This document shows, one piece after another, positions 2,483-37,667 of a stretch of 64,000 nucleotides of DNA. A program made the position numbers and the translations under genes. Each line of letters starts with the position of its first letter. Positions within the stretch are counted from its first letter, which is position 1. The notes under the pieces were generated by a model that searched no databases, was not told the DNA's origin, and saw only the letters and a program-made list of their open reading frames with translations. The DNA comes from Escherichia coli. GTDB taxonomy: Bacteria > Pseudomonadota > Gammaproteobacteria > Enterobacterales > Enterobacteriaceae. The stretch lies in assembly GCF_024700885.2 (NCBI RefSeq), contig NZ_CP117016.1; one strand, 5' to 3'.

Positions 2483-2748
2483 GGTCATTCTCCTTTACGG
2501 TGATAACCGTCGCGTAAGCAAAAAATTGCCCCATTTTTTTGGATTCCTCAGCGACAACAACTGTCGATTTTTAGTAAATATCTATCCGGTACGAAGCCCG
2601 GCCTCTTGGTATGAATGATTGGTTTGAAGCAAAAAATAACCGACGCTGATGAAACGTCGGTTTTTAGTCATTTTTTGACAGCGGCGCATTGTGCCTAAAT
2701 GGGGGGGAAATGACAAGAGAATGAGAGGCTTGTCATAATAATTTTTCT

Positions 2749-4630: not shown

Positions 4631-4885
4631 TCAATAATGATAACGACATGCTGCAATGAGCAGTGAATCGTCGGTAACCGCGTATACCAGACGGTGCTCC
4701 TCTGTAATGCGTCGGGACCAGAAACCTGACAAATTATGTTTCAGGGGTTCTGGCTTCCCCTTACCTTCAAATGGCGTTCTGCGGGTATCTTTGATAAGTT
4801 CATTGATCTTTTTAACAATTCGCTTATCTGTTTCCTGCCAGTACAGATAATCGTCCCATGATTCCTCAGACCAGATTAGTTTCAC
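4631..4885 (-). CDS. yoeB: Type II toxin YoeB (ribosome-dependent mRNA interferase)
   Basis: 84-aa [87 protein letters not shown]; overlaps the upstream antitoxin by 4 bp. Confidence 0.9.
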
Positions 4886-5133
4886 TCAATGATGTCCTTT
4901 TCCGTTCCTTTGCCTGATTTCAGGCTATCGATTGAGTCCATCAATCTCCGGGCGTTAGCGGGGGAGCGCAGTAGATAAGCCGTCTCTTCCAGCGAGTTGT
5001 ATTCTTCGAGTGACATCAGAACACAAGCCTCTCCATTCTGACGAGTAATAAGGATCGGGGCATGATCTTCAACGGCTTTCATCATTGTTGCCGACAAATT
5101 CTGACGCGCTTCGCTGTAGCTAATTGTACGCAT
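4882..5133 (-). CDS. yefM: Type II antitoxin YefM
   Basis: Track ORF 4882..5160; start trimmed to [55 protein letters not shown] (83 aa). Confidence 0.9.
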
Positions 5134-5415
5134 GTCAATCTCCTCTTTTGTACAGTTCATTGTACAATGATGAGCGTTAATTAACTATTTATTAATTAGT
5201 TTGTAGATCAAGGTATTGTCAGTGAGACGAAAATCCAGGCTTCGCTATTTTTGGTGCCATCAGCTTAGAGGACAGTCCTCTTAGCCCCCTCCTTTCCCCG
5301 CTCATTCATTAAACAAATCCATTGCCATAAAATATATAAAAAAGCCCTTGCTTTCTAACGTGAAAGTGGTTTAGGTTAAAAGACATCAGTTGAATAAACA
5401 TTCACAGAGACTTTT

Positions 5416-5466
5416 ATGACACGCGTTCAATTTAAACACCACCATCATCACCATCATCCTGACTAG
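5416..5466 (+). CDS. hisL: his operon leader peptide with seven consecutive His codons
   Basis: atgacacgcgttcaatttaaacaccaccatcatcaccatcatcctgactag translates to MTRVQFKHHHHHHHPD*. Confidence 0.95.
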   Translation: MTRVQFKHHHHHHHPD

Positions 5467-5527
5467 TCTTTCAGGCGATGTGTGCTGGAAGACATTCAGA
5501 TCTTCCAGTGGTGCATGAACGCATGAG

Positions 5528-5566
5528 AAAGCCCCCGGAAGATCACCTTCCGGGGGCTTTTTTATT
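5528..5566 (+). terminator. his attenuator, Rho-independent terminator hairpin
   Basis: GC-rich inverted repeat aaagcccccggaag / cttccgggggcttt followed by a T-run, between hisL and hisG. Confidence 0.85.
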
Positions 5567-5611
5567 GCGCGGTTGATAACGGTTCAGACAGGTTTAAAGA
5601 GGAATAAGAAA

Positions 5612-6511
5612 ATGACAGACAACACTCGTTTACGCATAGCTATGCAGAAATCCGGCCGTTTAAGTGATGACTCACGCGAATTGCTGGCGCGCTGTGGCAT
5701 TAAAATCAATCTTCACACCCAGCGCCTGATCGCGATGGCAGAAAACATGCCGATTGATATTCTGCGCGTGCGTGACGACGACATTCCCGGTCTGGTAATG
5801 GATGGCGTGGTAGACCTTGGGATTATCGGCGAAAACGTGCTGGAAGAAGAGCTGCTTAACCGCCGCGCCCAGGGTGAAGATCCACGCTACTTTACCCTGC
5901 GTCGTCTGGATTTCGGCGGCTGCCGTCTTTCGCTGGCAACGCCAGTTGATGAAGCCTGGGACGGCCCGCTCTCCTTAAACGGTAAACGTATCGCCACCTC
6001 TTATCCTCACCTGCTCAAGCGTTATCTCGACCAGAAAGGCATCTCTTTTAAATCCTGCTTACTGAACGGTTCTGTTGAAGTCGCCCCGCGTGCCGGACTG
6101 GCGGATGCGATTTGCGATCTGGTTTCCACCGGTGCCACGCTGGAAGCTAACGGCCTGCGCGAAGTCGAAGTTATCTACCGCTCGAAAGCCTGCCTGATCC
6201 AGCGCGATGGCGAAATGGAAGAATCCAAACAGCAACTGATCGACAAACTGCTGACCCGTATTCAGGGTGTGATCCAGGCGCGCGAATCAAAATACATCAT
6301 GATGCACGCACCGACCGAACGTCTGGATGAAGTCATCGCCCTGCTGCCAGGTGCCGAACGCCCAACTATTCTACCGCTGGCGGGTGATCAACAGCGCGTA
6401 GCGATGCACATGGTCAGTAGCGAAACCCTGTTCTGGGAAACCATGGAAAAACTGAAAGCGCTGGGTGCCAGTTCAATCCTGGTCCTGCCGATTGAGAAGA
6501 TGATGGAGTGA
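5612..6511 (+). CDS. hisG: ATP phosphoribosyltransferase
   Basis: Track ORF 5573..6511; start set at [25 protein letters not shown]. Confidence 0.9.
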
Positions 6512-6516
6512 TCGCC

Positions 6517-8887
<2,371 letters not shown>

Positions 8888-8888
<1 letters not shown>

Positions 8889-9954
8889 TGAGTCAGAAGT
8901 ATCTTTTTATCGATCGCGATGGAACCCTGATTAGCGAACCGCCGAGTGATTTTCAGGTGGACCGTTTTGACAAACTCGCCTTTGAACCGGGCGTGATCCC
9001 GGAGCTACTGAAGCTGCAAAAAGCGGGCTACAAGCTGGTGATGATCACTAATCAGGATGGTCTGGGAACACAAAGTTTCCCGCAGGCGGATTTTGATGGC
9101 CCGCACAACCTGATGATGCAGATCTTCACCTCGCAAGGCGTGCAGTTTGATGAAGTGCTGATTTGTCCGCACCTGCCCGCCGATGAGTGCGACTGCCGTA
9201 AGCCGAAAGTAAAACTGGTAGAGCGTTATCTGGCTGAGCAAGCGATGGACCGTGCCAACAGTTATGTGATTGGCGATCGCGCGACCGACATTCAACTGGC
9301 GGAAAACATGGGCATTAATGGTTTACGCTATGACCGCGAAACCCTGAACTGGCCAATGATTGGCGAGCAGCTCACTAAACGAGACCGTTACGCCCATGTG
9401 GTGCGCAACACCAAAGAGACGCAAATTGACGTCCAGGTGTGGCTGGATCGCGAAGGTGGCAGCAAGATTAACACCGGCGTTGGCTTCTTTGATCACATGC
9501 TGGATCAGATCGCCACCCACGGCGGTTTCCGGATGGAAATCAACGTCAAAGGCGACCTCTATATCGACGATCACCACACCGTCGAAGATACCGGCCTGGC
9601 GCTGGGCGAAGCGTTAAAAATTGCTCTTGGCGACAAACGCGGTATTTGCCGCTTTGGTTTTGTGCTGCCGATGGACGAATGCCTTGCCCGCTGCGCACTG
9701 GATATCTCTGGTCGCCCGCACCTGGAATATAAAGCTGAATTTACCTACCAGCGCGTGGGCGATCTCAGCACTGAAATGATCGAGCACTTCTTCCGTTCGC
9801 TCTCTTACACCATGGGCGTGACGTTGCACCTGAAAACCAAAGGTAAAAACGATCATCACCGTGTAGAGAGCCTGTTCAAAGCTTTTGGTCGCACCCTGCG
9901 CCAGGCCATCCGCGTGGAAGGCGATACCCTGCCCTCGTCGAAAGGAGTGCTGTA

Positions 9955-9955
<1 letters not shown>
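8888..9955 (+). CDS. hisB: Bifunctional histidinol-phosphatase / imidazoleglycerol-phosphate dehydratase
   Basis: Track ORF 8885..9955; start set at [19 protein letters not shown] (HAD phosphatase motif DRDGTL). Confidence 0.9.
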
Positions 9956-12033
<2,078 letters not shown>

Positions 12034-12040
<7 letters not shown>

Positions 12041-12645
12041 CAGAACAACTACGTCGCGAACTGGACTGGGAAAAAACCGACGGACTTATGCCGGTGATTG
12101 TGCAACACGCGGTATCTGGCGAAGTGTTAATGCTGGGCTATATGAACCCGGAAGCTCTGGACAAAACCATCGAAAGCGGCAAAGTCACCTTCTTCTCGCG
12201 CACTAAACAGCGACTGTGGACCAAAGGCGAAACGTCGGGCAATTTCCTCAACGTAGTAAATATTGCGCCGGACTGCGACAACGACACGTTACTGGTGCTG
12301 GCGAATCCCATCGGCCCGACCTGCCACAAAGGCACCAGCAGTTGCTTCGGCGACACCGCTCACCAGTGGCTGTTCCTGTATCAACTGGAACAACTGCTCG
12401 CCGAGCGCAAATCTGCCGATCCGGAAACCTCCTACACCGCCAAACTGTATGCCAGCGGCACCAAACGCATTGCGCAGAAAGTGGGTGAAGAAGGCGTGGA
12501 AACCGCGCTGGCCGCGACGGTCAATGACCGCTTCGAATTAACCAACGAAGCCTCTGATTTGATGTATCACCTGCTGGTGCTGTTACAGGATCAGGATCTG
12601 GATTTAACGACGGTAATTGAGAACCTGCGTAAACGACATCAGTGA
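12034..12645 (+). CDS. hisI: Bifunctional phosphoribosyl-AMP cyclohydrolase / phosphoribosyl-ATP pyrophosphatase
   Basis: 203-aa [45 protein letters not shown]... Confidence 0.9.
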
Positions 12646-16806: not shown

Positions 16807-17205
16807 TCACACGAACGATTTTGCAAAAGAAGGGTCAAATGGCCCCTCCTTAACTTCCACCATAAGAGCACGCGGAGATAGGCATTCGACACTGTGTATA
16901 TCGCCCGGAGAAAACTCCACAATGCTCATTCCAGTATTATCTCCTGCTATAAATTGCTTTATAACCTCACCATTTCTACCATACAAACAAACCTGAAGTT
17001 GCCCCTCCATAACAATGAACATTTCCCACTGATGAGGAAGTTCGTGATAATGCGGTTCAACATAGCTGCCCTTTACTAATGCAATAAGTAAACGCTGTAC
17101 CTTTTCTTGATGCGAGCCGTGCATCATAAGGTGGGAACGTAAACGTTCCGATTGCCCGGCTTGATCATATAATTCGTCGAGTTGGTCATTATCAATTAAT
17201 CGCAT
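16807..17205 (-). CDS. wbuC: Cupin-fold protein, WbuC family (terminal gene of fnl-type O-antigen clusters)
   Basis: 132-aa ORF with cupin-like motif PHYHELPHQWEMFIVMEG; sits after wbuB next to gnd; 14-bp overlap with wbuB. Confidence 0.6.
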   Translation of the reverse strand: MRLIDNDQLDELYDQAGQSERLRSHLMMHGSHQEKVQRLLIALVKGSYVEPHYHELPHQWEMFIVMEGQLQVCLYGRNGEVIKQFIAGDNTGMSIVEFSPGDIHSVECLSPRALMVEVKEGPFDPSFAKSFV

Positions 17206-18406
17206 TGCATGCCTCCAACCTCATTTCTATCGTCTGTGCCGCAGACTCAACGGAGAATTGTTCTTTCAACAATATATTCGCCCCCGAACCAAGTTGCCGG
17301 CGCACATCAATATCATGCAACATTAATAGCGCAGATTGACATAATTTATCGTCCTCACCATTGACATGGATTAATCCCGCATTATTTTGATTGACAATGT
17401 CGAGCAAATCATTTCCGGCATTTACGCTACCTAAAATAGGTAGCGACTGAACCATATAGCCTAATAACTTACCAGGAAAATTATGGGAAGAGTGTCTAGC
17501 GGAAAGAGAAAACAAGCCGATATCCATTTCCGACAAAATGAACTTAAATTCATCTTGGTTAACCGAGGGCAAATAGGTGAAATTCGTCAATGCCCACTCA
17601 GATGCTAATGAATTAATTAATTCAACTTCATCCCCCTGGCCAATAAATAGGAAATGAGCTTGAGGATATGCTGCCATGTTTCTCACAAGTCGCATCAAGT
17701 TTGTCATGTCCTGTGCATGACCTATGTTTCCACCATAGAAGAAAATGGTTTTATCCTCTAGGCCAAGTCGCTTACGTAGTGGTATATAATCCTTGGGTAT
17801 GATCGTTGGTGTTAGGGATGCCCAATTACGCAAAACTTCGCACGGATAGCCTTTATTATCTTTCCGAAAAACATCAAGATTCTTATCAGACATAAGTCCA
17901 ATACGATTTGCCTGACGATAAGATATTTTTTCAAAAAGACGAAAGTAGCGTTCTATTGGGGAACCAGCATTAAGCATTCCTGCATCAATTACCCATTGTG
18001 GAAACATATCTCTTAAAATAAGATAAGCAGGACATTGGCAACGAGCTTTAATTTTTTTAACTAAAGGCCCCCAGAATATGGAAGGTGAATAATAAATCAC
18101 CCCCTCAAAGGTCTCTTTTTTTACCCATTTTTTGATGGCTTTCCACGCCCGATAGGACAAAAGCGTTTCATTGACCGCTCGCTGAATTTTACTTACATCC
18201 TTGAGCGGCCCGCTTTTAAAACGCCATGTTTTTACCCCCTGAAAGGTATCAAAAGAAATCTCTTCTTGCATGCCCGTACCAGGAGTAATTACCGTAACAT
18301 CGTGCCCACGCTGGATAAATTCTTGAGCAAGTTCATGAAACATTTTTGCACCAACACGAGTACTGTTGGGCAGGTAATCATCTATGATTAAAGCAAGTTT
18401 CATCAA
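17192..18406 (-). CDS. wbuB: GT4-family glycosyltransferase, probable L-FucNAc transferase (WbuB-like)
   Basis: 404-aa ORF MMKLALIIDDYLPNSTRVGAKMFHELAQEF...; immediately downstream of fnlC as in other fnl-type clusters. Confidence 0.65.
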   Translation of the reverse strand: MMKLALIIDDYLPNSTRVGAKMFHELAQEFIQRGHDVTVITPGTGMQEEISFDTFQGVKTWRFKSGPLKDVSKIQRAVNETLLSYRAWKAIKKWVKKETFEGVIYYSPSIFWGPLVKKIKARCQCPAYLILRDMFPQWVIDAGMLNAGSPIERYFRLFEKISYRQANRIGLMSDKNLDVFRKDNKGYPCEVLRNWASLTPTIIPKDYIPLRKRLGLEDKTIFFYGGNIGHAQDMTNLMRLVRNMAAYPQAHFLFIGQGDEVELINSLASEWALTNFTYLPSVNQDEFKFILSEMDIGLFSLSARHSSHNFPGKLLGYMVQSLPILGSVNAGNDLLDIVNQNNAGLIHVNGEDDKLCQSALLMLHDIDVRRQLGSGANILLKEQFSVESAAQTIEMRLEACNAIN

Positions 18407-19533
18407 TATTCTTTCCAGACGACTCTCTTAACATAATCTGTGTAAGAGTGAACAATTCTGACAACTTTATCCGACACATTTGGCATGCTGTAATCACTAA
18501 CCTGACGTAAAAGACGGACTTCACCTCGCGGTTGTGTTGCCAGAATATCCAGCGCTTGTAATACGCGTTCACACTCTAACCCCACCATCATGACGGATGC
18601 TTCCTCAAAGCCTTCCGGACGCTCATGCGCTTCCCGGATGTTTACCGCTGGGAAATTCATGATGGATGACTCTTCAGTGATAGTACCGCTATCTGAAAGC
18701 ACAGCTCGTGAGTTCTTCTGCAAGTGGTTATAATCATGGAAACCCAATGGTTTCAGTAGATTTATATTTGAATGAAATTCAATTCCTTGCTCACGGATTC
18801 GGTTACGTGTCCTTGGGTGTGTGGAGACAATAACTGGAAGATTATATTTTTCAGCAACAGTATTTAGAATGTTCGCAAGCTTTACGAGCTGTTTTGGAGA
18901 ATCAACATTCTCTTCACGATGCGCACTTACTACAAAAAACTCACCAGACTGTAGATTCAAACGCGATAGCACATCTGAACCATCAATTTGGGGCATATAA
19001 TATGAAAGAACCTCAAACATAGGGCTACCAGTTTTTATGATCCGATCAGCTGGGATACCTTCAGCCAAGAGATATTCACGAGCAATATCACTGTAGGTCA
19101 TATTGATATCAGCCGTATGGTCAACAATACGTCTGTTGGTTTCTTCAGGCACGCGTTGATCGAAACAACGGTTACCTGCTTCCATATGAAATATAGGCAC
19201 TTTACGGCGTTTGGCCGGAATGGCAGAAATACATGAATTCGTATCGCCCAATACCAGTATTGCTTCAGGTTTTTCGATTTCTAATACTTCATCTACCTTA
19301 ATAATAACCTGACCAATGGTTTCCGCCGCATTTTTACCCGCTGCATTTAAAAAATAATCAGGTTTTCGAACACCCAAGTCATTGAAGAACACTTCATTTA
19401 ATTCGTAATCATAATTTTGACCAGTATGGACAATAATATGCTCGCAGTATTCATCAAACTTAGCAAGAACCCTCGACAAACGGATAATCTCAGGACGGGT
19501 TCCAACAACAGACATAACTTTTAATTTTTTCAT
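18403..19533 (-). CDS. fnlC: UDP-N-acetylglucosamine 2-epimerase (non-hydrolysing), FnlC-type
   Basis: 376-aa ORF MKKLKVMSVVGTRPEIIRLSRVLAKFDEY...HTGQNYDYELNEVFF (WecB/MnaA fold). Confidence 0.8.
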   Translation of the reverse strand: MKKLKVMSVVGTRPEIIRLSRVLAKFDEYCEHIIVHTGQNYDYELNEVFFNDLGVRKPDYFLNAAGKNAAETIGQVIIKVDEVLEIEKPEAILVLGDTNSCISAIPAKRRKVPIFHMEAGNRCFDQRVPEETNRRIVDHTADINMTYSDIAREYLLAEGIPADRIIKTGSPMFEVLSYYMPQIDGSDVLSRLNLQSGEFFVVSAHREENVDSPKQLVKLANILNTVAEKYNLPVIVSTHPRTRNRIREQGIEFHSNINLLKPLGFHDYNHLQKNSRAVLSDSGTITEESSIMNFPAVNIREAHERPEGFEEASVMMVGLECERVLQALDILATQPRGEVRLLRQVSDYSMPNVSDKVVRIVHSYTDYVKRVVWKEY

Positions 19534-20636
19534 TATAGAGGTCTCGCAATAGTATCGGGCTCATCACGGTTGAAAATTTCATTTGCCCAGAGCATGACTA
19601 TTAATTCATCAGTTCCAATATTTGTAATGTCATGTGTCCAACCAGGAACTGTTTCAACAATCTTAAACTCACCCGATGAAACTTTCAGTTCATATCGCTC
19701 ACCGGTAATCACATGTTCAAATTTAAAGCATGCCTGACCTCGAATGACCAAAAACTTCTCATTTTTACTGTGATGGTAATGTCCGCCACGCGTAATACCA
19801 GGGTGAGCAGTAAAAAATGAAAACTGCCCCGCTGAAGGCGTTTTCAACATCTCACAAAAGACTCCGCGGGCATCCCCATAAAAAGGTACCTTGTACGCAA
19901 ACTTCTCTGCTGGTAAATAACTCAGCCATGTAGAATACAATGCACGGGTAAATCCCGCCCCGACAGCCTCTGTGATCAGGGTGGAACGGCTATTTTTGAA
20001 GCTATAAATTAATTCTGCAACTTCACCAACTGTTGTTGAATAAATTGGTGCAACAACTTTATATCCACTTTCAACCGTCCCAGAGAGAAGAGCTATAGCA
20101 TCAGTACAAACATCATCAATATAGACCAGATTGACTGGCGCTGCTGCATCATTGATAGTAATCTCAATATCATTGGAAATATTGTAGCAAAAAGTTGCTA
20201 TAAAAGAATTATAGTTTGGCTTACACCATTTACCAAAAACGTTTGGATATCTGAAAATATAATACGAAGAACCACTAGCAGCAGCATATTTTTCGACATA
20301 GCTTTCAGCTACAGCTTTGCTAACCCCATAAGCATTATTAAGTTCAGCTTGTATCGAAGAACTTAGCATAATTGGTGTATTCTTACCAATAGAAAGGAGA
20401 TACTCAACTATATGCTTTGTTAAATCACTGTTTCCAGAAATAAACTCATCATCAGTCTTAGGTCTATTGATACCAGCTAAGTGATAAATAAAATCGGCAT
20501 CCTGTAAGCCTTGTTCAAGATCTTGCTTCGTTGATTCTCGATCAATTCTAATAAGATCTTTATAACCAAGTTCCTCAAGCCTCAAACATAAATTACGACC
20601 AATAAAACCATTTGCACCAGTAACTAATATTTTCAT
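19533..20636 (-). CDS. fnlB: FnlB/Cap5F-type reductase of the UDP-L-FucNAc pathway
   Basis: Track ORF 19533..20669; start trimmed to MKILVTGANGFIGRNLCLRLEELGY (Rossmann motif at the N-terminus). Confidence 0.75.
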   Translation of the reverse strand: MKILVTGANGFIGRNLCLRLEELGYKDLIRIDRESTKQDLEQGLQDADFIYHLAGINRPKTDDEFISGNSDLTKHIVEYLLSIGKNTPIMLSSSIQAELNNAYGVSKAVAESYVEKYAAASGSSYYIFRYPNVFGKWCKPNYNSFIATFCYNISNDIEITINDAAAPVNLVYIDDVCTDAIALLSGTVESGYKVVAPIYSTTVGEVAELIYSFKNSRSTLITEAVGAGFTRALYSTWLSYLPAEKFAYKVPFYGDARGVFCEMLKTPSAGQFSFFTAHPGITRGGHYHHSKNEKFLVIRGQACFKFEHVITGERYELKVSSGEFKIVETVPGWTHDITNIGTDELIVMLWANEIFNRDEPDTIARPL

Positions 20637-20637
20637 A

Positions 20638-21672
20638 TCATGAATCCAGATTATATTTTTCACCAGCACGAATTGCTCGAATAAAGGCTAATTTTAGCAA
20701 GAGCTCTTTCATGCCTTCAACATCTAACCGTTGAGTATTATGAGAGTTATAATCTTCTATTTCAGATATTCGGCTATCACCTTGCTCAACATATTTGCCA
20801 TAATTAAGGTCACGAAGATCTGGCGGGACACGGTAATAATCGCCCATATCTATAGCAGCGATCATTTCCTCACGACTAAGTAGAGCTTCATATAATTTCT
20901 CGCCATGACGCGTTCCAATGACATTTACCGGATGGTCAGGAACATTTAGTAATTCCTTTAAAGCAATAGCTAATGTGTCAATAGTTGCTGCAGGTGCTTT
21001 TTGCACAAAGATATCACCATTATTACCATGTTCAAACGCATAAAGAACTAAATCTACCGCATCCTCAAGAGTCATCATAAAGCGGGTCATATTAGGATCA
21101 GTTATTGTGAGTGGCTTGCCCGCTCTAATAAGATCAACAAATAATGGAATAACTGAACCGCGAGATGCCATAACATTCCCATAACGGGTACCACATATTA
21201 CTGTTTTATTGCGATCAACATTACGGGATTTCGCGACCATGACCTTTTCCATCATAGCTTTTGAAATACCCATTGCGTTAATCGGGTATACAGCTTTATC
21301 AGTACTTAGGCATACAACCCTCTTCACTTCATTCGCTATAGCTGCTTCAAGAACATTTTCCGTACCAAGGATATTAGTTTTAACGGCTTCCATAGGATGA
21401 AATTCACATGATGGAACTTGCTTAAGTGCCGCTGCATGATATATAAAATCAACACCGCGAGTCGCATTCAAAATACTACGGTAATCTCTGACATCACCAA
21501 TATAGAACTTTAATTTTTGATTATTGTATTTTTTCCGCATATCATCTTGTTTTTTTTCATCACGACTAAATATACGGATTTCTGCAATATCTGTATCAAG
21601 AAATCTATTTAATACAGCATTCCCGAAAGAGCCAGTACCACCAGTAATTAACAGTGTTTTAGATGAAAACAT
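20638..21672 (-). CDS. fnlA: UDP-GlcNAc 4,6-dehydratase/5-epimerase, FnlA/CapE-type
   Basis: 344-aa ORF MFSSKTLLITGGTGSFGNAVLNRFLDTDIAEIRIFSRDEKKQ... Confidence 0.8.
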   Translation of the reverse strand: MFSSKTLLITGGTGSFGNAVLNRFLDTDIAEIRIFSRDEKKQDDMRKKYNNQKLKFYIGDVRDYRSILNATRGVDFIYHAAALKQVPSCEFHPMEAVKTNILGTENVLEAAIANEVKRVVCLSTDKAVYPINAMGISKAMMEKVMVAKSRNVDRNKTVICGTRYGNVMASRGSVIPLFVDLIRAGKPLTITDPNMTRFMMTLEDAVDLVLYAFEHGNNGDIFVQKAPAATIDTLAIALKELLNVPDHPVNVIGTRHGEKLYEALLSREEMIAAIDMGDYYRVPPDLRDLNYGKYVEQGDSRISEIEDYNSHNTQRLDVEGMKELLLKLAFIRAIRAGEKYNLDS

Positions 21673-21713
21673 AATAACCGAACCTCAAATCATTGACAAA
21701 TATACTCTGGAAG

Positions 21714-22892
21714 CTATTTACTTACTTGACCTAACTTATTAGTAATTGAACTCTGTCCACTAAGTGTTACTCTATTCAAAAACATATATATAAAAGATAG
21801 AAAGAAATAGCCGTTAGATCCTAAAACTAAACCTTTGGTATTGAAAATTATCCCAATTAACATCCATATAATTGCTTGATATGTCATTCCAAATGTCGCA
21901 ATAGAAATAGTAAAGATTAAAAATAAAAAGAGTGTAATAAATGTTAACCCACCGTAATTAAACAGTATAACCCAGCCCATATCCGAACTTTGTTTAATAT
22001 CGGGGATTGATGAAGATATGTTTTGCTGTAATCCAAATATAATATTAAAAAAATCTAAATTACCTACAACAAACACATGTTGCTGTAATAAGATATCCAG
22101 AGTTCTTGTGCCATCTCCAGAAACGAACTCATCATAAAATCGAGGAAAGAACACTGCTCCTAAGCTATAAACTAAAACTCCCAAAATCAATACTGTTGCA
22201 ATTTTTATATTAATATTAAGTCTAGAGCAACCGATACCAATAATGGCTGCAATCACAGCCATGTTAGAATTTACGATTTGAGTCAGACAAATTAAAGTAA
22301 TTAAAGCATAACGCCTTTTCATCATAAAAAATGACATATAGATCATCAAAAATGGTGTCATGAAATTTATTTCACCCGACAACCCAAATCCTCTTACTTT
22401 AGCATTTTGTTCCCAAAGATTAACAGAGTCAGACATACCAAAGAAAGTATATAACAATCTTTTTAACTCTGGACTTATATACATACCAAAAAAAATAACT
22501 ATTTGAACCCAGAGAGAATACACTAATATTCGCTCCATTAATTTCAAGTCACCCTTTATGAATCTATTTACTAAATAATACGCAGGAACAAATGAAAATA
22601 AAAACAACATAAATAATCTAACGGTAAAATAACTTTGAAAAGAATGGCTTTTTTGAAACAAATCGAAAACCAAACAAAATAAAAAAATAATTATGAATAT
22701 AGATAACAGCAACAAATTTTTACGATCTATAGATACCAATCCATTGCCCATAGTAATCATAAAATTACGCACTAAATACATAATACCAAAAAATGCAGGA
22801 ATAAATGCCAAATATAAGAAAGGTATTATCAGCGACAATCTAAAAAAAACAACAAAAAATAATAAAAAAGCCATCAATGCATTATACTTCAT
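21714..22892 (-). CDS. wzy: O-antigen polymerase (polytopic membrane protein)
   Basis: 392-aa very hydrophobic, AT-rich ORF with many predicted transmembrane segments; lies between the fnl genes and a glycosyltransferase. Confidence 0.6.
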   Translation of the reverse strand: MKYNALMAFLLFFVVFFRLSLIIPFLYLAFIPAFFGIMYLVRNFMITMGNGLVSIDRKNLLLLSIFIIIFLFCLVFDLFQKSHSFQSYFTVRLFMLFLFSFVPAYYLVNRFIKGDLKLMERILVYSLWVQIVIFFGMYISPELKRLLYTFFGMSDSVNLWEQNAKVRGFGLSGEINFMTPFLMIYMSFFMMKRRYALITLICLTQIVNSNMAVIAAIIGIGCSRLNINIKIATVLILGVLVYSLGAVFFPRFYDEFVSGDGTRTLDILLQQHVFVVGNLDFFNIIFGLQQNISSSIPDIKQSSDMGWVILFNYGGLTFITLFLFLIFTISIATFGMTYQAIIWMLIGIIFNTKGLVLGSNGYFFLSFIYMFLNRVTLSGQSSITNKLGQVSK

Positions 22893-22941
22893 TGTTTTTT
22901 ACCTTCCATACAAATGTCTTAATAAATGAAGATAGCATCAT

Positions 22942-23928
22942 CTATATATACCAGTTCTTAAGCAAATCATCTGTTTTTGAGGTGCCACGCTCTCCAATAC
23001 CATGTATATATGCCGAAATCAACACATATCTGTAAAGAATTGGGAAATAGAGTTTTTTATTTGCATCTGTTTTTTTTAAAAATTGTATTATTTTTTTAAA
23101 AATAAATTTATTGAAAAATATTGATTGGCATATTTTACTAAACGTTTTGTGTTTACTAAATATTTTCTCAACTAGGAATAATTTTTTATTAGTAGAAAAC
23201 ATTTCAGGCCTTACTTTGCTTAATACATTCATACCATCACGTGCTGTAGCACGAATTTTTTTTGTATATCCTTCTATATCGCCACTGTATTCGTGATGTA
23301 ATATTTTAAAATCAGCAAAAATAATTTTGAAGTCATTTTTTTCAAGTTGCCACCCAAACTCATGATCTTCACAACCATAACCAATAAAATTTTCATTATA
23401 TGAAACTATACCTGATGAAAATGCCTTTCTATCAAGAACACAATTCATTGCGACAAAAGTCCAGGCATTCATAGAGATATCAGGACTATCACTAAACTTA
23501 GGGTGTAAAGAGTTCCTGTAGCGATAGTAATTGCTGGTCTCAATGAGTTCATTTTCGAATCTAACTTCCCCACATAAAACGCTTTTACTATTCATTTTTT
23601 TTAAATAGTTCAGCAACGATGATATATATCCACTTGCGGGTATACAATCATCATCAAGAAATATTAAATAATCCCCATGGGCTAGGGATGCTCCGAAATT
23701 GCGCTTAGCGGAGAGTATATTTTTAGTATGTTGATGGATAATATTAATATTTTTCTTTTTATGAATATTATCAGCAACTACATCATCAATTTCTTTACCA
23801 CTATGACTATCGGAAACAATTACTTCTAGGTGTAGACTATTGTCTTTAGCCTGAGAATCGAGCTCAGAGAGAATCAATTCTAATTGAACTGGGCGTTTCC
23901 AAACAGATATTATTACCGAGATATTCAT
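22942..23928 (-). CDS. GT2-family glycosyltransferase
   Basis: 328-aa ORF MNISVIISVWKRPVQLELILSELDSQ... with DDD motif (YLIFLDDDCIP); 4-bp overlap with wzx. Confidence 0.7.
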   Translation of the reverse strand: MNISVIISVWKRPVQLELILSELDSQAKDNSLHLEVIVSDSHSGKEIDDVVADNIHKKKNINIIHQHTKNILSAKRNFGASLAHGDYLIFLDDDCIPASGYISSLLNYLKKMNSKSVLCGEVRFENELIETSNYYRYRNSLHPKFSDSPDISMNAWTFVAMNCVLDRKAFSSGIVSYNENFIGYGCEDHEFGWQLEKNDFKIIFADFKILHHEYSGDIEGYTKKIRATARDGMNVLSKVRPEMFSTNKKLFLVEKIFSKHKTFSKICQSIFFNKFIFKKIIQFLKKTDANKKLYFPILYRYVLISAYIHGIGERGTSKTDDLLKNWYI

Positions 23929-25169
23929 AATTTATGAGGCCTACATACGGTTTTATTTACTTTAATGAATTGTTTAAGCATTCCCATGCCAACGAAAATT
24001 TCAGCTACAATAAGACTCACAATCGCACCCGTTGCTCCATAATATTTACATGCTGGATAAACTATGCTTAAACAAGTAATAGTTCCTAGGAAAATAGATT
24101 TGAAATACTGTTTTTGCATCCCATTAGGTACTAATACAAGTAACCCGACAACTGTATTAAAACCTATGAATATAGGAAGCAATGTCATTAATTGCATTGC
24201 ACCTGCAATTACTTCACCTTTCATGCCGAATATTAATAATGATAATTGGTTGGCAAAAAGTAAAAATGGTATTGCTAAAGCCATGTAAAAAACAAGCAAG
24301 TATTTAAGAATCATTCTAGATTTTAAGTTTGCAATATATGGATTCTCTCTTTGCAAAATGTTAATTCTTGGATAAAAAGCTTGGACTAATGGTGATGCAA
24401 GTCCAGCCAAACCTTGTTTGATCATGTTAGCTGAGTTAAAGATGCCTACATCAAACTTTCCAGATACGCCACCCAATACAAGAGGGGTCAACATTGTGTA
24501 TGCACTAGTCGCAAGTGTTGAACAAAAAAAATGAAATCCATTTTTTAAAATTACTTGAATTTTCTTTATCGGTGGCCTACATAAAAAAATCTCCTTGATA
24601 ATAAGTAAGTAGGCAACGCCACAGAATGAATACAAAATATATGGCATGCTCAATAATAAGGCACTGATGTACATCGGCGTTGCGGGTTTTATAATTAGAT
24701 AAACTGCAACGACTGCTATGCCTCGTGAAAATAGTGACAGCACAGCCATCACACTCATCATTTCCTTACCTTGCAAAAACCAATTTGGATTGAAAACACC
24801 TGCAATTACGGACAGAAAACCAACACATAACAAAGACTTAACGTCGTTAAAAACATAAAAAAAACAGAGTATTATGAGTATTATAGCTGCAATTAGCATT
24901 AATATAAAACGAGCAAGCACCACACCGCAAAAAAATTCAGAATGGTATTTTTTATCGTTATTTAGTGCTATTTCTCTTGTCCCACTATATCCAAAACCAT
25001 ATTCAACAACCATTAACAACACTTGTATAGTTATCAATGAAAAACTCAGATCACCAAAATTCGATACACCAATGACTCTAACAAGATAAGGAAAAATTAA
25101 TAATGGCAGTAGGTAATTGGCACCCTGACTTATTGCAAGGTAAAGAACATTTAGTTTAGTTTTGCTCAA
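23925..25169 (-). CDS. wzx: O-antigen flippase
   Basis: 414-aa multi-pass membrane ORF MSKTKLNVLYLAISQGANYLLPLLIFPYLVRVIGVSNFGDL... (polysaccharide biosynthesis/MOP-type N-terminus). Confidence 0.7.
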   Translation of the reverse strand: MSKTKLNVLYLAISQGANYLLPLLIFPYLVRVIGVSNFGDLSFSLITIQVLLMVVEYGFGYSGTREIALNNDKKYHSEFFCGVVLARFILMLIAAIILIILCFFYVFNDVKSLLCVGFLSVIAGVFNPNWFLQGKEMMSVMAVLSLFSRGIAVVAVYLIIKPATPMYISALLLSMPYILYSFCGVAYLLIIKEIFLCRPPIKKIQVILKNGFHFFCSTLATSAYTMLTPLVLGGVSGKFDVGIFNSANMIKQGLAGLASPLVQAFYPRINILQRENPYIANLKSRMILKYLLVFYMALAIPFLLFANQLSLLIFGMKGEVIAGAMQLMTLLPIFIGFNTVVGLLVLVPNGMQKQYFKSIFLGTITCLSIVYPACKYYGATGAIVSLIVAEIFVGMGMLKQFIKVNKTVCRPHKL

Positions 25170-25247
25170 TGAAGTGCCCCATATACAACAGATATCATTC
25201 GAGTAACTTATTCACATGAATCAATAAGTTGTTTATTCAGGGCAAGA

Positions 25248-26321
25248 TTACGAAAGCCCGCTCCCCGCAAGAACTGACGCCAGATAGTTTCTGTCCATGG
25301 CTGCTTTTCGCATCTTACGTCTTAACCCTGCCTTGAATACCTTATCATTCGTCAAAATATTAATAGCAATGTGCCGTATCCCTGAAAATAAATCTGCTGC
25401 ATTTCCTCTTCTTATTTTGCAGTCGTCTTCATTCATTACCACGTCCAGACGCCAGTGCAGCTTATTCTCCACGTGCCAGTGGTTTCGGATTGCTGTGGCG
25501 AACTTCTCTGCGGTTAAATCAGCAGAACTGATATAATATCTGACCGTCATTTCTGGCTCTTTCTTTTGTTCTGCTATTATTGACCGAAAGGAGACTGCCA
25601 CGCATAATTTCTTCAGACCTTTCCATTCAAACGTGAAATCAAAAAGTTCATCAGGGACATCGCAAACAATATGAAGACGGATTTCGTCTCTGCCGTGACT
25701 CTTTTCACTCATTGCGTAACTGTCATGCTCTGGATTATTTAATTCTTTCAGTGGAAATTTTTCCTCAAAGGCTTTATTAAGCCGCCCCTGATTTCCTTTT
25801 ACAGCGAATAAATAATCACCGCCCTGTTTTTGTATCTTCTCTGCAATATCTTTCTGGCAACCCATCGCATCAGTTGTGATGATTTTTCCTTTAATATCCA
25901 GCATGTTAAGAAGTTCAGGGATAGCTGTAATTTCATTGGATTTCTCATCCGTCCTGATCTGTCCGATGACCAGACTGTGCATTGTTGAGAACGCACTAAT
26001 GACATGAATCGCTCCCTTGCGGCGACTCTTGTCATAAGAATGCCGGAGTGTTTTTCCATCAATTGCGATGAAGTCTTTATCATCTGAAGAATGGCAGTCA
26101 CGCATCCAGTTAATAAAGCACTCGTGAAATTTTGCAGGACTGATACAGGATACAACTCTGGCAATGGTATCGTGAACAGGAATACCATTTTCAAAATCAC
26201 CATATTGCTTCAAAAAATCGAGATGTGTTTCCCCAAAATCCTCTATATCTTCCCAGCCTTCTGCACCCGAAATAACGGCACAAATAGTCAACAGTAGAAT
26301 ATCCGACAATTTATGTTCCAC
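25248..26321 (-). pseudogene. ISAs1-family (H-repeat-associated) transposase, outer copy, N-terminal ~20 codons separated by the nested insertion
   Basis: 357-aa ORF beginning [11 protein letters not shown] aligns to residue 22 onward of the 378-aa inner-copy ORF; roughly 15 substitutions by eye. Confidence 0.7.
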
Positions 26322-26344
26322 TTTCCAGGCTTGTCAGGGAAAGA

Positions 26345-27481
26345 TTACGAAAGCCCGCACCCCGCAAGGACTGACGCCAGATAGTTTCTGTCCATGGCTG
26401 CTTTTCGCATCTTACGTCTTAACCCTGCCTTGAATACCTTATCATTCGTCAAAATATTAATAGCGATGTGCCGTATCCCTGAAAATAATTCTGCTGCATT
26501 TCCTCTTCTTATTTTGCAGTCGTCTTCATTCATTACCACGTCCAGACGCCAGTGCAGCTTATTCTCCACGTGCCAGTGATTTCGGATCGCTGTGGCGAAC
26601 TTTTCTGCGGTTAAATCAGCAGAACTGATATAATATCTGACCGTCATTTCTAGCTCTTTCTTTTGTTCTGCTATTATGGACCGAAAGGAGACTGCCACGC
26701 ATAATTTCTTCAGTCCTTTCCATTCAAACGTGAAACCAATAAGTTCATCAGGGACATCGCAAACAATATGAAGACGGATTTCTTCTCTGCCGTGATTTTT
26801 TTCACTAATTGCGTAACTGTCATGCTCTGGATTATTTAATTCTTTCAGTGGAAATTTTTCCTCAAAGGCTTTATTAAGCCGCCCCTGATTTCCTTTTACA
26901 GTGAATAAATAATCACCGCCCTGTTTTTGTATCTTCTCTGCAATATCTTTCTGGCAACCCATCGCATCAGTTGTGATGATTTTTCCTTTAATATCCAGCA
27001 TGTTAAGAAGTTCAGGGATAGCTGTAATGTCATTGGATTTCTCATCCGTCCTGATCTGTCCGTTGACCAGACTGTGCATTGTTGAGAACGCACTAATGAC
27101 ATGAATCGCTCCCCTGCGGCGACTCTTGTCATAAGAATGCCGGAGTGTTTTTCCATCAATTGCGATGACGTCTTTATCATCTGAAGTATGGCAATCTCGC
27201 ATCCAGTTAATAAAGCACTCGTGAAATTTTGCAGGACTGATACAGGATACAACTCTGGCGATGGTATCGTGAACAGGAATACCATTTTCAATATCACCGT
27301 ATTGTTTTAAAAAATCGAGATGTGTTTCCCCAAAATCCTCTATATCTTCCCAACCTTCTGCACCAGAAATAACGGCACAAATAGTCAACAGTAGAATATC
27401 CGATAATTTATGTTCCACTTTCCAGGCTTGTCTGTAATCGGGGATAATAGAAATATGTTCCATCAATTTTTTAAGTTCCAT
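26345..27481 (-). CDS. ISAs1-family (H-repeat-associated) transposase, intact inner copy
   Basis: 378-aa [66 protein letters not shown]..., recognised as the E. coli H-repeat protein family (YhhI-like). Confidence 0.85.
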
Positions 27482-27834: not shown

Positions 27835-27878
27835 AGACACGCTACCGCCCCTGGCTTTACAGCTACCAGAGCACTGCA
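27835..27878 (-). promoter_or_regulatory. JUMPstart element with ops site (RfaH loading site) for the O-antigen operon
   Basis: + strand cacgctaccgcc at 27838..27849 is the reverse complement of the ops consensus GGCGGTAGCGTG; the surrounding ~40 bp closely match the copy upstream of wza. Confidence 0.8.
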
Positions 27879-36195: not shown

Positions 36196-37566
36196 TTACT
36201 CGTTCAGCAACGTCAGCAGAGTTCGCGTTCGCGCTTCCATCAGCGGCACATCACCGCGTGATTCCACATTCAACCGCACCACCGGCTCGGTGTTGGAGGA
36301 GCGCAGATTAAAGCGCCAGTCGGCAAAGGTCATGCTGATGCCATCGGTGCGATCCACCGCCAGCGCCTCGCGGCTAAAGTGCTGTTCCACGCGGTTAATC
36401 GCCTCAACGGGTTGTGCCAGTTTGCTGTTGATCTCACCGCTTGCCGGAAACGCCGCCATCCGGTCGCGCACCAGTTCGCCCAGCGTTTTTCCTTTCAGGC
36501 ACACCAGTTCGGCGACCAGCAGCCACGGGATCATGCCGCTGTCGCAGTAAGCGAAATCACGGAAGTAATGGTGGGCGCTCATTTCGCCACCGTAGATAGC
36601 ATCTTCCTTGCGCATACGTTCTTTAATAAAGGCGTGTCCGGTTTTCGACATTACCGGGGTGCCGCCTGCGGCAGTCACCACATCAACGGTGTTCCAGGAG
36701 AGACGTGGATCGTGGATGATCTTCGCGCCGGGATTTTTTTCGAGGAACGCTTCTGCCAGCAGGCCGACAATGTAGTAGCCCTCGATAAACTGCCCTTTTT
36801 CGTCAAACAGGAAACAGCGGTCAAAATCGCCATCAAAGGCAATGCCCATATCCGCGCCGTGTTTGATGACCGCATTGCGGGTGTCGTCGCGGCATTCCGG
36901 CAGTAGCGGGTTAGGAATACCGTTGGGGAAATTGCCGTCCGGCGTGTTATGCACTTTGATTAACTCCACCGGTGCGCCGAGGGCTTTAAAGCGGGCTTCG
37001 ATGGCGTCCACCACCGGACCCGCCGCGCCATTCCCGGAGTTAATCACCAGCTTGAGCGGCGTAAGTTTTTTGACGTTGATATAACCGAACAGGTGATCAA
37101 CGTAAGCGTCACGCAGATTGATTTGCTGATAGCGACCGCGTTTGGTTTCATCGACGGGAGGAAAGTCGTTGGCTTCTGCCAGACGCTGGACATCGCGCAG
37201 TCCGGTATCGCCGCTGATCGGGCGAGCCCCTTCGCGCACCAGCTTCATGCCGTTGTAATCCATCGGGTTATGGCTGGCGGTAACTTCGATGCCGCCATCC
37301 ACGCCGAGATGGAACGTGGCGAAATAGATTTCTTCTGTGCCGGACATACCGATATCCAGCACATCGACGCCCGCATCCTGTAAACCTTTCGCCAGCGCCA
37401 GTTTTAAGGTTTCGCTGGTGAGGCGGACATCACCGCCTAACACAATGGTTTTCGGTTTGAGAAATTCGCCATAAGCGCGACCAATGCGCCAGGCAATATC
37501 TTCATTCAGTTCTTCGCCTAATTTTCCGCGAATATCATAGGCTTTAAAGCAGGTTAATTTTTTCAT
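36196..37566 (-). CDS. cpsG: Phosphomannomutase
   Basis: Track ORF 36196..37614; start trimmed to [39 protein letters not shown] active-site motif present. Confidence 0.9.
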
Positions 37567-37667
37567 ATCGTTACCCTTTTTCAGGCAATAGTTGGCCCTG
37601 ACCGAAACGGCCAATTTTGTTTTTGTCGTTATTTACCGGAGAATTAATCCAGTTGATTATTCAACGG

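Follow-up and report, generated by a model that had tools for sequence, protein, structure and literature searches.

Intact hisL attenuator of the standard type upstream of the histidine operon in an Escherichia coli genome

In this work we describe the leader of the histidine operon in a 64,000-nucleotide stretch of Escherichia coli DNA (RefSeq assembly GCF_024700885.2, contig NZ_CP117016.1), referred to below as the window. The eight genes of the operon are present at full length and each of their products has a top NCBIfam model scoring above its curated cut-off, while the start codon of hisG (ATG, 5612) lies immediately downstream of the leader and in the same orientation. Directly upstream of hisL, and transcribed away from it, are two toxin-antitoxin genes. 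The main features of the locus are as follows:

4631-4885, minus strand: yoeB toxin-antitoxin gene
4882-5133, minus strand: yefM toxin-antitoxin gene
5416-5466, plus strand: hisL leader peptide open reading frame of 16 codons, read from the sequence and its translation and annotated by RefSeq as hisL in strains ECONIH4 and K-12
5523-5565, plus strand: intrinsic terminator (the attenuator, helix E:F), with a GC core formed by 5531-5541 and 5547-5557 and a T-run at 5558-5563
5612-12645, plus strand: hisG, hisD, hisC, hisB, hisH, hisA, hisF and hisI, assigned by NCBIfam with RefSeq coordinates in agreement

The hisL reading frame is preceded by a weak Shine-Dalgarno-like sequence (AGAG, 5406-5409) and translates to MTRVQFKHHHHHHHPD followed by a stop. 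From the start codon at 5416 its codons run ATG ACA CGC GTT CAA TTT AAA, continue with seven consecutive histidine codons (CAC CAC CAT CAT CAC CAT CAT, 5437-5457) and close with CCT GAC TAG, the stop codon occupying 5464-5466. This stop codon sits in the loop of a hairpin at 5458-5475, so that the reading frame ends within the first hairpin of the leader. Published accounts give the length of the leader peptide as 18 (PMC3896937) or 16 (PMC4046918) amino acids; the 16 codons found here agree with the latter and not with the former. Downstream lies a G+C-rich terminator core of 11 base pairs, GCCCCCGGAAG (5531-5541) pairing across the loop AUCAC with CUUCCGGGGGC (5547-5557), which is directly followed by UUUUUU (5558-5563) and can be extended to a stem of 19 base pairs (5523-5541 with 5547-5565). 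The distance from the hisL stop codon is 64 nt to the GC core and 56 nt to the A/U-extended stem beginning at 5523, and 48 nt lie between the end of the U-run and the hisG start codon. An earlier note, made from the sequence alone, had placed seven His codons and a terminator hairpin at 5416-5566, with a GC-rich hairpin and T-run about 60 nt past the leader peptide; sequence and translation bear out each of these points at the same coordinates.

A scan of the leader region for consensus promoters and terminators reported neither. The terminator was missed because greedy extension of the stem pairs GAGAAA with the U-run and thereby uses up the T tail, and the promoter because each of its hexamers matches the consensus at just three of six positions. 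We considered this blank as evidence against a terminator and rejected it, the hairpin and T-run being plain in the sequence.

Rfam assigns 5442-5565 (plus strand) to the His_leader family (RF00514) with 131.6 bits (E=1.4e-21) against a gathering score of 49; the match covers model positions 1-126 of 126 with no non-canonical pairs flagged, and the search of the leader gave no match to a T-box model. RefSeq labels the same stretch hisL or "His leader region", and the 452-nt neighbourhood as "His leader region", hisL and hisG. The leader transcript (5385-5570) is identical to that of K-12 MG1655. Within 5134-5611 two flanking bases differ from K-12. One is 5266 (T for A), located 5' of the promoter; the other is 5608 (G for C), which falls between the Shine-Dalgarno sequence of hisG and its start codon, 4 nt ahead of the latter. 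There are zero differences within the element. The K-12 and Salmonella enterica hisL leaders share with this copy the same 16-codon, seven-His peptide, the same pairings, the pause hairpin and pause consensus, and the downstream operon. We hold it to be nearly certain that the element is the leader/attenuator hisL, which controls transcription of hisLGDCBHAFI in E. coli by ribosome-mediated attenuation. The textbook ribosome-mediated attenuation of hisGDCBHAFI proposed in the earlier note is thus supported by the RF00514 match, the RefSeq annotation, the identity to K-12 and the intact operon, and the suggestion that the attenuator is fully preserved stands on the identity of 5385-5570 to MG1655. 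The attenuator is already known, intact and ordinary, of the standard E. coli type.

Upstream of and within the leader we located the following transcription signals:

5348-5377, plus strand: presumed primary promoter hisp1, with -35 TTGCTT (5348-5353), an 18-nt spacer and -10 TAGGTT (5372-5377)
5385, plus strand: probable transcription start (+1) of the leader RNA, from published box coordinates
5486-5487, plus strand: putative RNA polymerase pause site, with its 3' end at U5486, G5487 as the next base and G at -10 (5477)

The hexamers TTGCTT and TAGGTT are those that we take to be the his promoter of the Salmonella and E. coli literature. Their position fits the proposed start, with TAGGTT 7 nt upstream of 5385. 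The start itself was placed from PMC10989985, which gives three box positions relative to +1 (46-56, 126-134 and 187-195); these correspond to 5430-5440, 5510-5518 and 5571-5579 only if transcription starts at 5385. Given that start, termination is predicted to yield a leader RNA of roughly 180 nt. Transcription of his is stimulated by ppGpp (PMC3896937). The tip of the pause hairpin (5458-5475) reads CCUGA-CUAGUCUU-UCAGG and holds the hisL stop codon. In the published system the hisL pause hairpin occupies -30 to -11 from the pause site, with the consensus G-10 Y-1 G+1 (PMC9291695); here 11 nt separate the hairpin from U5486, G5477 falls at -10 and G5487 at +1. Hairpin spacing and consensus fit together point to a putative polymerase pause at U5486.

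Constrained folds and helix energies resolve the leader into six segments, A to F, which can pair in alternative ways. In addition to the terminator E:F, the helices are:

5449-5484, plus strand: A:B hairpin (5449-5462 with 5471-5484, -11.7 kcal/mol), which appears in the Rfam structure line and whose tip is the his pause hairpin
5466-5493, plus strand: B:C alternative hairpin (5466-5476 with 5482-5493, -10.6 kcal/mol), which forms when the His codons are masked
5484-5509, plus strand: C:D hairpin (5484-5492 with 5501-5509, -11.9 kcal/mol)
5499-5544, plus strand: D:E antiterminator (5499-5512 with 5531-5544, -15.2 kcal/mol), with the core GAUCUUCC pairing with GGAAGAUC

The GC core of E:F has a helix energy of -23.5 kcal/mol, and the extended stem of 19 base pairs one of -32.2 kcal/mol. 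Segment D can pair with C or with E, and segment E with D or with F, so that these helices are mutually exclusive; RNA folding of the leader for mutually exclusive hairpins was the check that the earlier note had itself put forward, and such hairpins are predicted (D:C against D:E, and E:D against E:F). We examined three ribosome states by folding 5416-5546, a transcript ending before segment F, with the ribosome footprint masked. With no ribosome, A:B and C:D form and the probability that the 5' arm of the terminator is paired is 0.21. When the A site of the ribosome is on the first, third or fifth His codon, B:C and D:E form and this probability rises to 0.81, while a ribosome at the stop codon leaves C:D and a probability of 0.22. 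These states agree with the three-state scheme published for the Salmonella and E. coli leader of identical sequence (PMC4046918).

The full-length leader at equilibrium adopts A:B, C:D (5486-5492 with 5501-5507) and E:F whatever ribosome mask is applied, because E:F (-32.2 kcal/mol) outweighs D:E (-15.2 kcal/mol). Masking of the full-length RNA, which always returned the terminator, was for this reason superseded by the folds truncated before F and by a series of increasing transcript lengths. In that series A:B is the earliest helix without a ribosome and B:C the earliest with a stalled one. With the ribosome stalled, the equilibrium minimum passes through C:D at lengths 94-124 before B:C and D:E appear at 130, and E:F prevails once segment F is present. 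That E:F wins at equilibrium and C:D at intermediate lengths implies that the switch is kinetic and depends on kinetic trapping; in these folding models, equilibrium folding gives the exclusivity of the pairings and the order in which each can first form, and not the decision itself.

To place the leader among its relatives we scanned a genome collection for a pattern of seven His codons followed by CC, which returned mostly unrelated His-rich genes together with eight full leaders from other Enterobacteriaceae genera (119-132 bits in Rfam); a tblastn search with HisG found no divergent leaders among the other loci of that scan. In these close genera the stems are invariant, and changes are confined to hairpin loops, the wobble positions of His codons, codons 2-3 and spacers. 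Across Enterobacteriaceae outside Escherichia the leader is 90-95% identical, compared with 82-85% for hisG and 56-79% for the flanking non-coding DNA. Both conformations are 98.5-99% paired in this close set, whose invariant stems give no covariation signal. A scan of metagenomes with a pause-loop pattern, in which stem positions were free and the E. coli base at 5476 was excluded, gave 120 matches, nine of them true leaders with an in-frame His run and the other 111 attributable to chance. The nine leaders score 76-89 bits with the His_leader model and have hisG (67-70% HisG identity) about 60 nt downstream:

L145, 3236-3396: divergent His leader on a metagenome contig
L177, 5146-5307: divergent His leader on a metagenome contig
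L183, 2227-2386: divergent His leader on a metagenome contig
L197, 1712-1870: divergent His leader on a metagenome contig
L203, 6379-6537: divergent His leader on a metagenome contig
L204, 7797-7955: divergent His leader on a metagenome contig
L207, 3505-3662: divergent His leader on a metagenome contig
L220, 1069-1214: divergent His leader on a metagenome contig
L235, 2174-2333: divergent His leader on a metagenome contig

These divergent leaders resemble E. coli hisL in belonging to the same Rfam family, in having a pause-hairpin loop that contains TAG, and in the complementarity of C, D, E and F. They differ in encoding MRNFVMNIHHHHHPV and a stop, or a similar peptide, with five His codons as opposed to seven, in an insertion of 5 nt that separates B from C, in a longer spacer between D and E, and in their C/D/E segments, which read GGGAG/CUCCC/GGGAG where E. 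coli hisL has GGAAG/CUUCC/GGAAG. Equilibrium folding of the leader on L145 is biased to the read-through state, unlike that of E. coli hisL, and favours B:C and D:E in all ribosome states; the clean three-state outcome therefore does not generalise under a simple equilibrium method. On six of the nine contigs a lysine riboswitch lies approximately 2-3.5 kb from the His leader.

An alignment of 16 leaders, including the nine divergent ones, was used to examine covariation. For the terminator-state helices (A:B, C:D and E:F) 89.1% of cells are paired, and changes on both sides affect 8 pairs and 38 cells; for the antiterminator helices (B:C and D:E) the corresponding values are 89.6%, 3 pairs and 15 cells, and slid controls show 34-55% pairing. 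None of 500 shuffles reached these both-side changes in either the terminator or the antiterminator state, a control that ignores relatedness in a sample of about two clades, in which each compensatory pair amounts to approximately one event. B:C is paired in 100% of cells across the 16 leaders and shows a compensatory GC/AU change at alignment columns 58:76, C:D has two compensatory pairs (columns 76:97 and 79:94), D:E a compensatory CG/UA change (columns 94:139), and E:F compensatory changes at five pairs. Column 76 thus covaries with both 97 (C:D) and 58 (B:C), and column 94 with both 79 (C:D) and 139 (D:E); two alternative partners for each of these columns is the pattern expected of alternative pairings. 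Two long-range helices of the minimum-energy fold (5423-5429 with 5516-5522 and 5437-5442 with 5508-5513) are invariant in the close genera; as parts of the mechanism we set them aside, their pairing falling to 63-80% with the divergent leaders, where the alignment is uncertain.

The arrangement of these elements is consistent with the following course of events. Transcription would start at approximately 5385, and RNA polymerase would pause near U5486 after formation of the A:B (pause) hairpin, allowing a ribosome to load on hisL. When His-tRNA is plentiful, the ribosome would reach the stop codon at 5464 and cover A and B, so that C:D forms and the free segment E pairs with F once F has been made; E:F and the U-run would then end transcription at about 5563, before hisG. 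When His-tRNA is scarce, the ribosome would stall on the seven His codons (5437-5457) and cover only A, leaving B:C and D:E to form, the terminator to come too late, and the polymerase to read through hisG to hisI. In the case of an untranslated hisL, A:B, C:D and E:F would be expected to form and lead to termination. The model that opposes A:B, C:D and E:F to B:C and D:E goes back to Johnston et al. 1980 and is presented in PMC4046918. The read-through response to His-tRNA by ribosome stalling is documented in Salmonella, whose leader peptide gene is identical (PMC4046918), and pausing, stalling, termination and kinetic coupling come from published experiments on identical sequence (PMC4046918, PMC9291695; overview in PMC3896937). 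For this copy, then, the elements, the family, the exclusive pairings, the covariation and the intact operon were computed, and the dynamics would carry over from those experiments by identity of sequence.

A 2023 proposal (PMC10989985) adds a further component, in which DnaA bound to 'rDnaA boxes' of the leader RNA holds the ribosome, blocks D:E and boosts termination, an assisted attenuation that we think improbable here; the leader would on this view be in part a protein-dependent riboswitch superimposed on the classical mechanism. Box-like sequences are present at 5430-5440, 5510-5518 and 5571-5579, each with two mismatches to TTWTNCACA, and are invariant in the Enterobacteriaceae genera sampled; furthermore, a dnaA mutant shows approximately 4-fold higher his transcription, and the leader RNA is enriched in RIP (PMC10989985). 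However, the number of boxes with two or fewer mismatches in the window, 1185 or roughly one every 54 nt, is what chance would give (expected 1146 +/- 33), and the leader itself holds 7 such matches where 3.6 are expected (P = 0.08). Their conservation needs no further cause because they overlap leader codons and segment D, which are already constrained, and they are absent from all nine divergent His leaders. In the leader, therefore, the boxes are neither in excess of chance nor conserved family-wide, and the authors of the proposal found no in vitro binding and by their own account lack conclusive evidence of direct binding. Conservation of the leader exceeds that of hisG, including in unpaired stretches and the long-range helices, and might reflect an extra layer of control, a suggestion that we rate as somewhat less probable still; such a layer might consist of a protein partner such as DnaA, or of a closed fold of the untranslated state that enforces termination.

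As a rival to ribosome-mediated attenuation of the standard type, which remains our preferred reading, the leader could be a decayed or strain-specific variant that looks intact and yet contains a change shifting its set point in this strain. The leader does vary within the species. Of 5426 complete E. coli genomes, 5423 match the element in its 452-nt surrounding region and the other three give no leader match; the 155-nt leader is at least 99% identical in 5084 of these genomes, 95-99% identical in 316 and 90-95% identical in 23, and the DNA analysed here departs from K-12 at 5266 and 5608. Both positions are, however, outside the regulatory part of the leader transcript, and 5385-5570 agrees at every base with K-12 and many further genomes. 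A strain-specific decay, to which we had given very little weight, is thus refuted for the attenuator itself. Among the E. coli matches, one genome has six leader-matching places and one match is plasmid-borne. In E. coli 14EC017 (NZ_CP024134.1, 1926686-1926807) the match starts only at nucleotide 34 of the leader and a 'His leader region' is annotated without a hisL coding sequence, which suggests a disrupted hisL 5' end in that strain.

The 155-nt leader folds with -68.4 kcal/mol compared with -37.4 +/- 3.8 for 200 dinucleotide shuffles (z = -8.2), and its opposite strand folds comparably well (z = -8.4). Folding energy alone leaves the strand unfixed because any hairpin-rich DNA folds well both ways; the element is assigned to the plus strand on account of the reading frame, the T-run and the downstream hisG. 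The least probable reading, that of chance or of a wrongly assigned strand, with a short His-rich reading frame lying uncoupled beside the ordinary terminator of the oppositely oriented yefM-yoeB genes, gains something from the equally good reverse fold and from the ability of hairpin terminators to work both ways, but is refuted by the transcription of yefM-yoeB away from the leader (yefM start at 5133, minus strand), which leaves no upstream need for a terminator, by a T-run that is 3' of the hairpin on the plus strand only, by the full-length covariance-model match on that strand, and by the recurrence of the reading frame, hairpin and hisG in this arrangement at 17 other loci, distant ones with 67-70% HisG identity included.

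The hisL attenuator belongs to a wider class of amino acid operon leaders. The trpL, pheL, leuL, thrL and ilvL leaders share with it a reading frame rich in cognate codons, overlapping hairpins and a terminator before the first gene, and differ in their regulatory codons and sequence families. The his leader comprises six segments, A to F, with three hairpins in the terminating state, and trpL four segments, 1 to 4. In leaders of the trpL type, too, a pause of the polymerase links transcription with translation (PMC9291695; see also PMC1183508). The his T-box leaders of Gram-positive bacteria reach the same outcome, with uncharged tRNA-His deciding between terminator and antiterminator (PMC3896937); T-box RNAs, however, bind tRNA directly and without a leader peptide, whereas hisL here is a translated reading frame of His codons. 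No new biology follows from the attenuator described here. It serves as a positive control: a classic regulatory element could be recognised correctly from raw sequence, and its known mechanism was recovered by a family model, by constrained co-transcriptional folding and by covariation among retrieved relatives. As regards annotation, both the histidine operon and the region controlling it are confirmed as intact, in the form that is standard for E. coli.

The surroundings of the operon hold several further elements:

2629-2703, minus strand: STnc240 sRNA (Rfam, 68.2 bits)
17192-27481, minus strand: O-antigen cluster, with fnlA, a WbcJ-type reductase and a wecB-like epimerase
27838-27876, minus strand: JUMPstart element, one of a pair (60 and 57 bits), between galF and the O-antigen genes
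37571-37620, minus strand: algC RNA motif (78 bits), immediately 5' of the cpsG phosphomannomutase gene (ATG near 37566)
52007-52045, minus strand: JUMPstart element, the other of the pair, upstream of wza at the head of the colanic-acid cluster

STnc240 also occurs 1.1-2.3 kb from the his leader at seven of the other Enterobacteriaceae loci retrieved, and this synteny is therefore conserved. The yefM-yoeB locus (4631-5175) carries two TGTACA half-sites in its promoter region, at 5149 and 5161. Some E. coli genomes begin to match the his region only at 5274, 5284 or 5338, and upstream of the respective position they differ from the window. At 54368-54376 the window is without the IS1A insertion that ECONIH4 has in a RelE/ParE-family toxin gene beside yegH. 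In the O-antigen cluster (17192-27481) there were no detected rml genes, and two tandem ISAs1-family transposase reading frames (25248-26321 and 26345-27481; 97% identical DNA) adjoin galF. ECONIH4 has a his leader region that is 100% identical to the one described here and an unrelated O-antigen cluster of the O13/O129/O135 type with ISSpu7 insertions, from which it follows that the O-antigen locus has been swapped beside a conserved his region.
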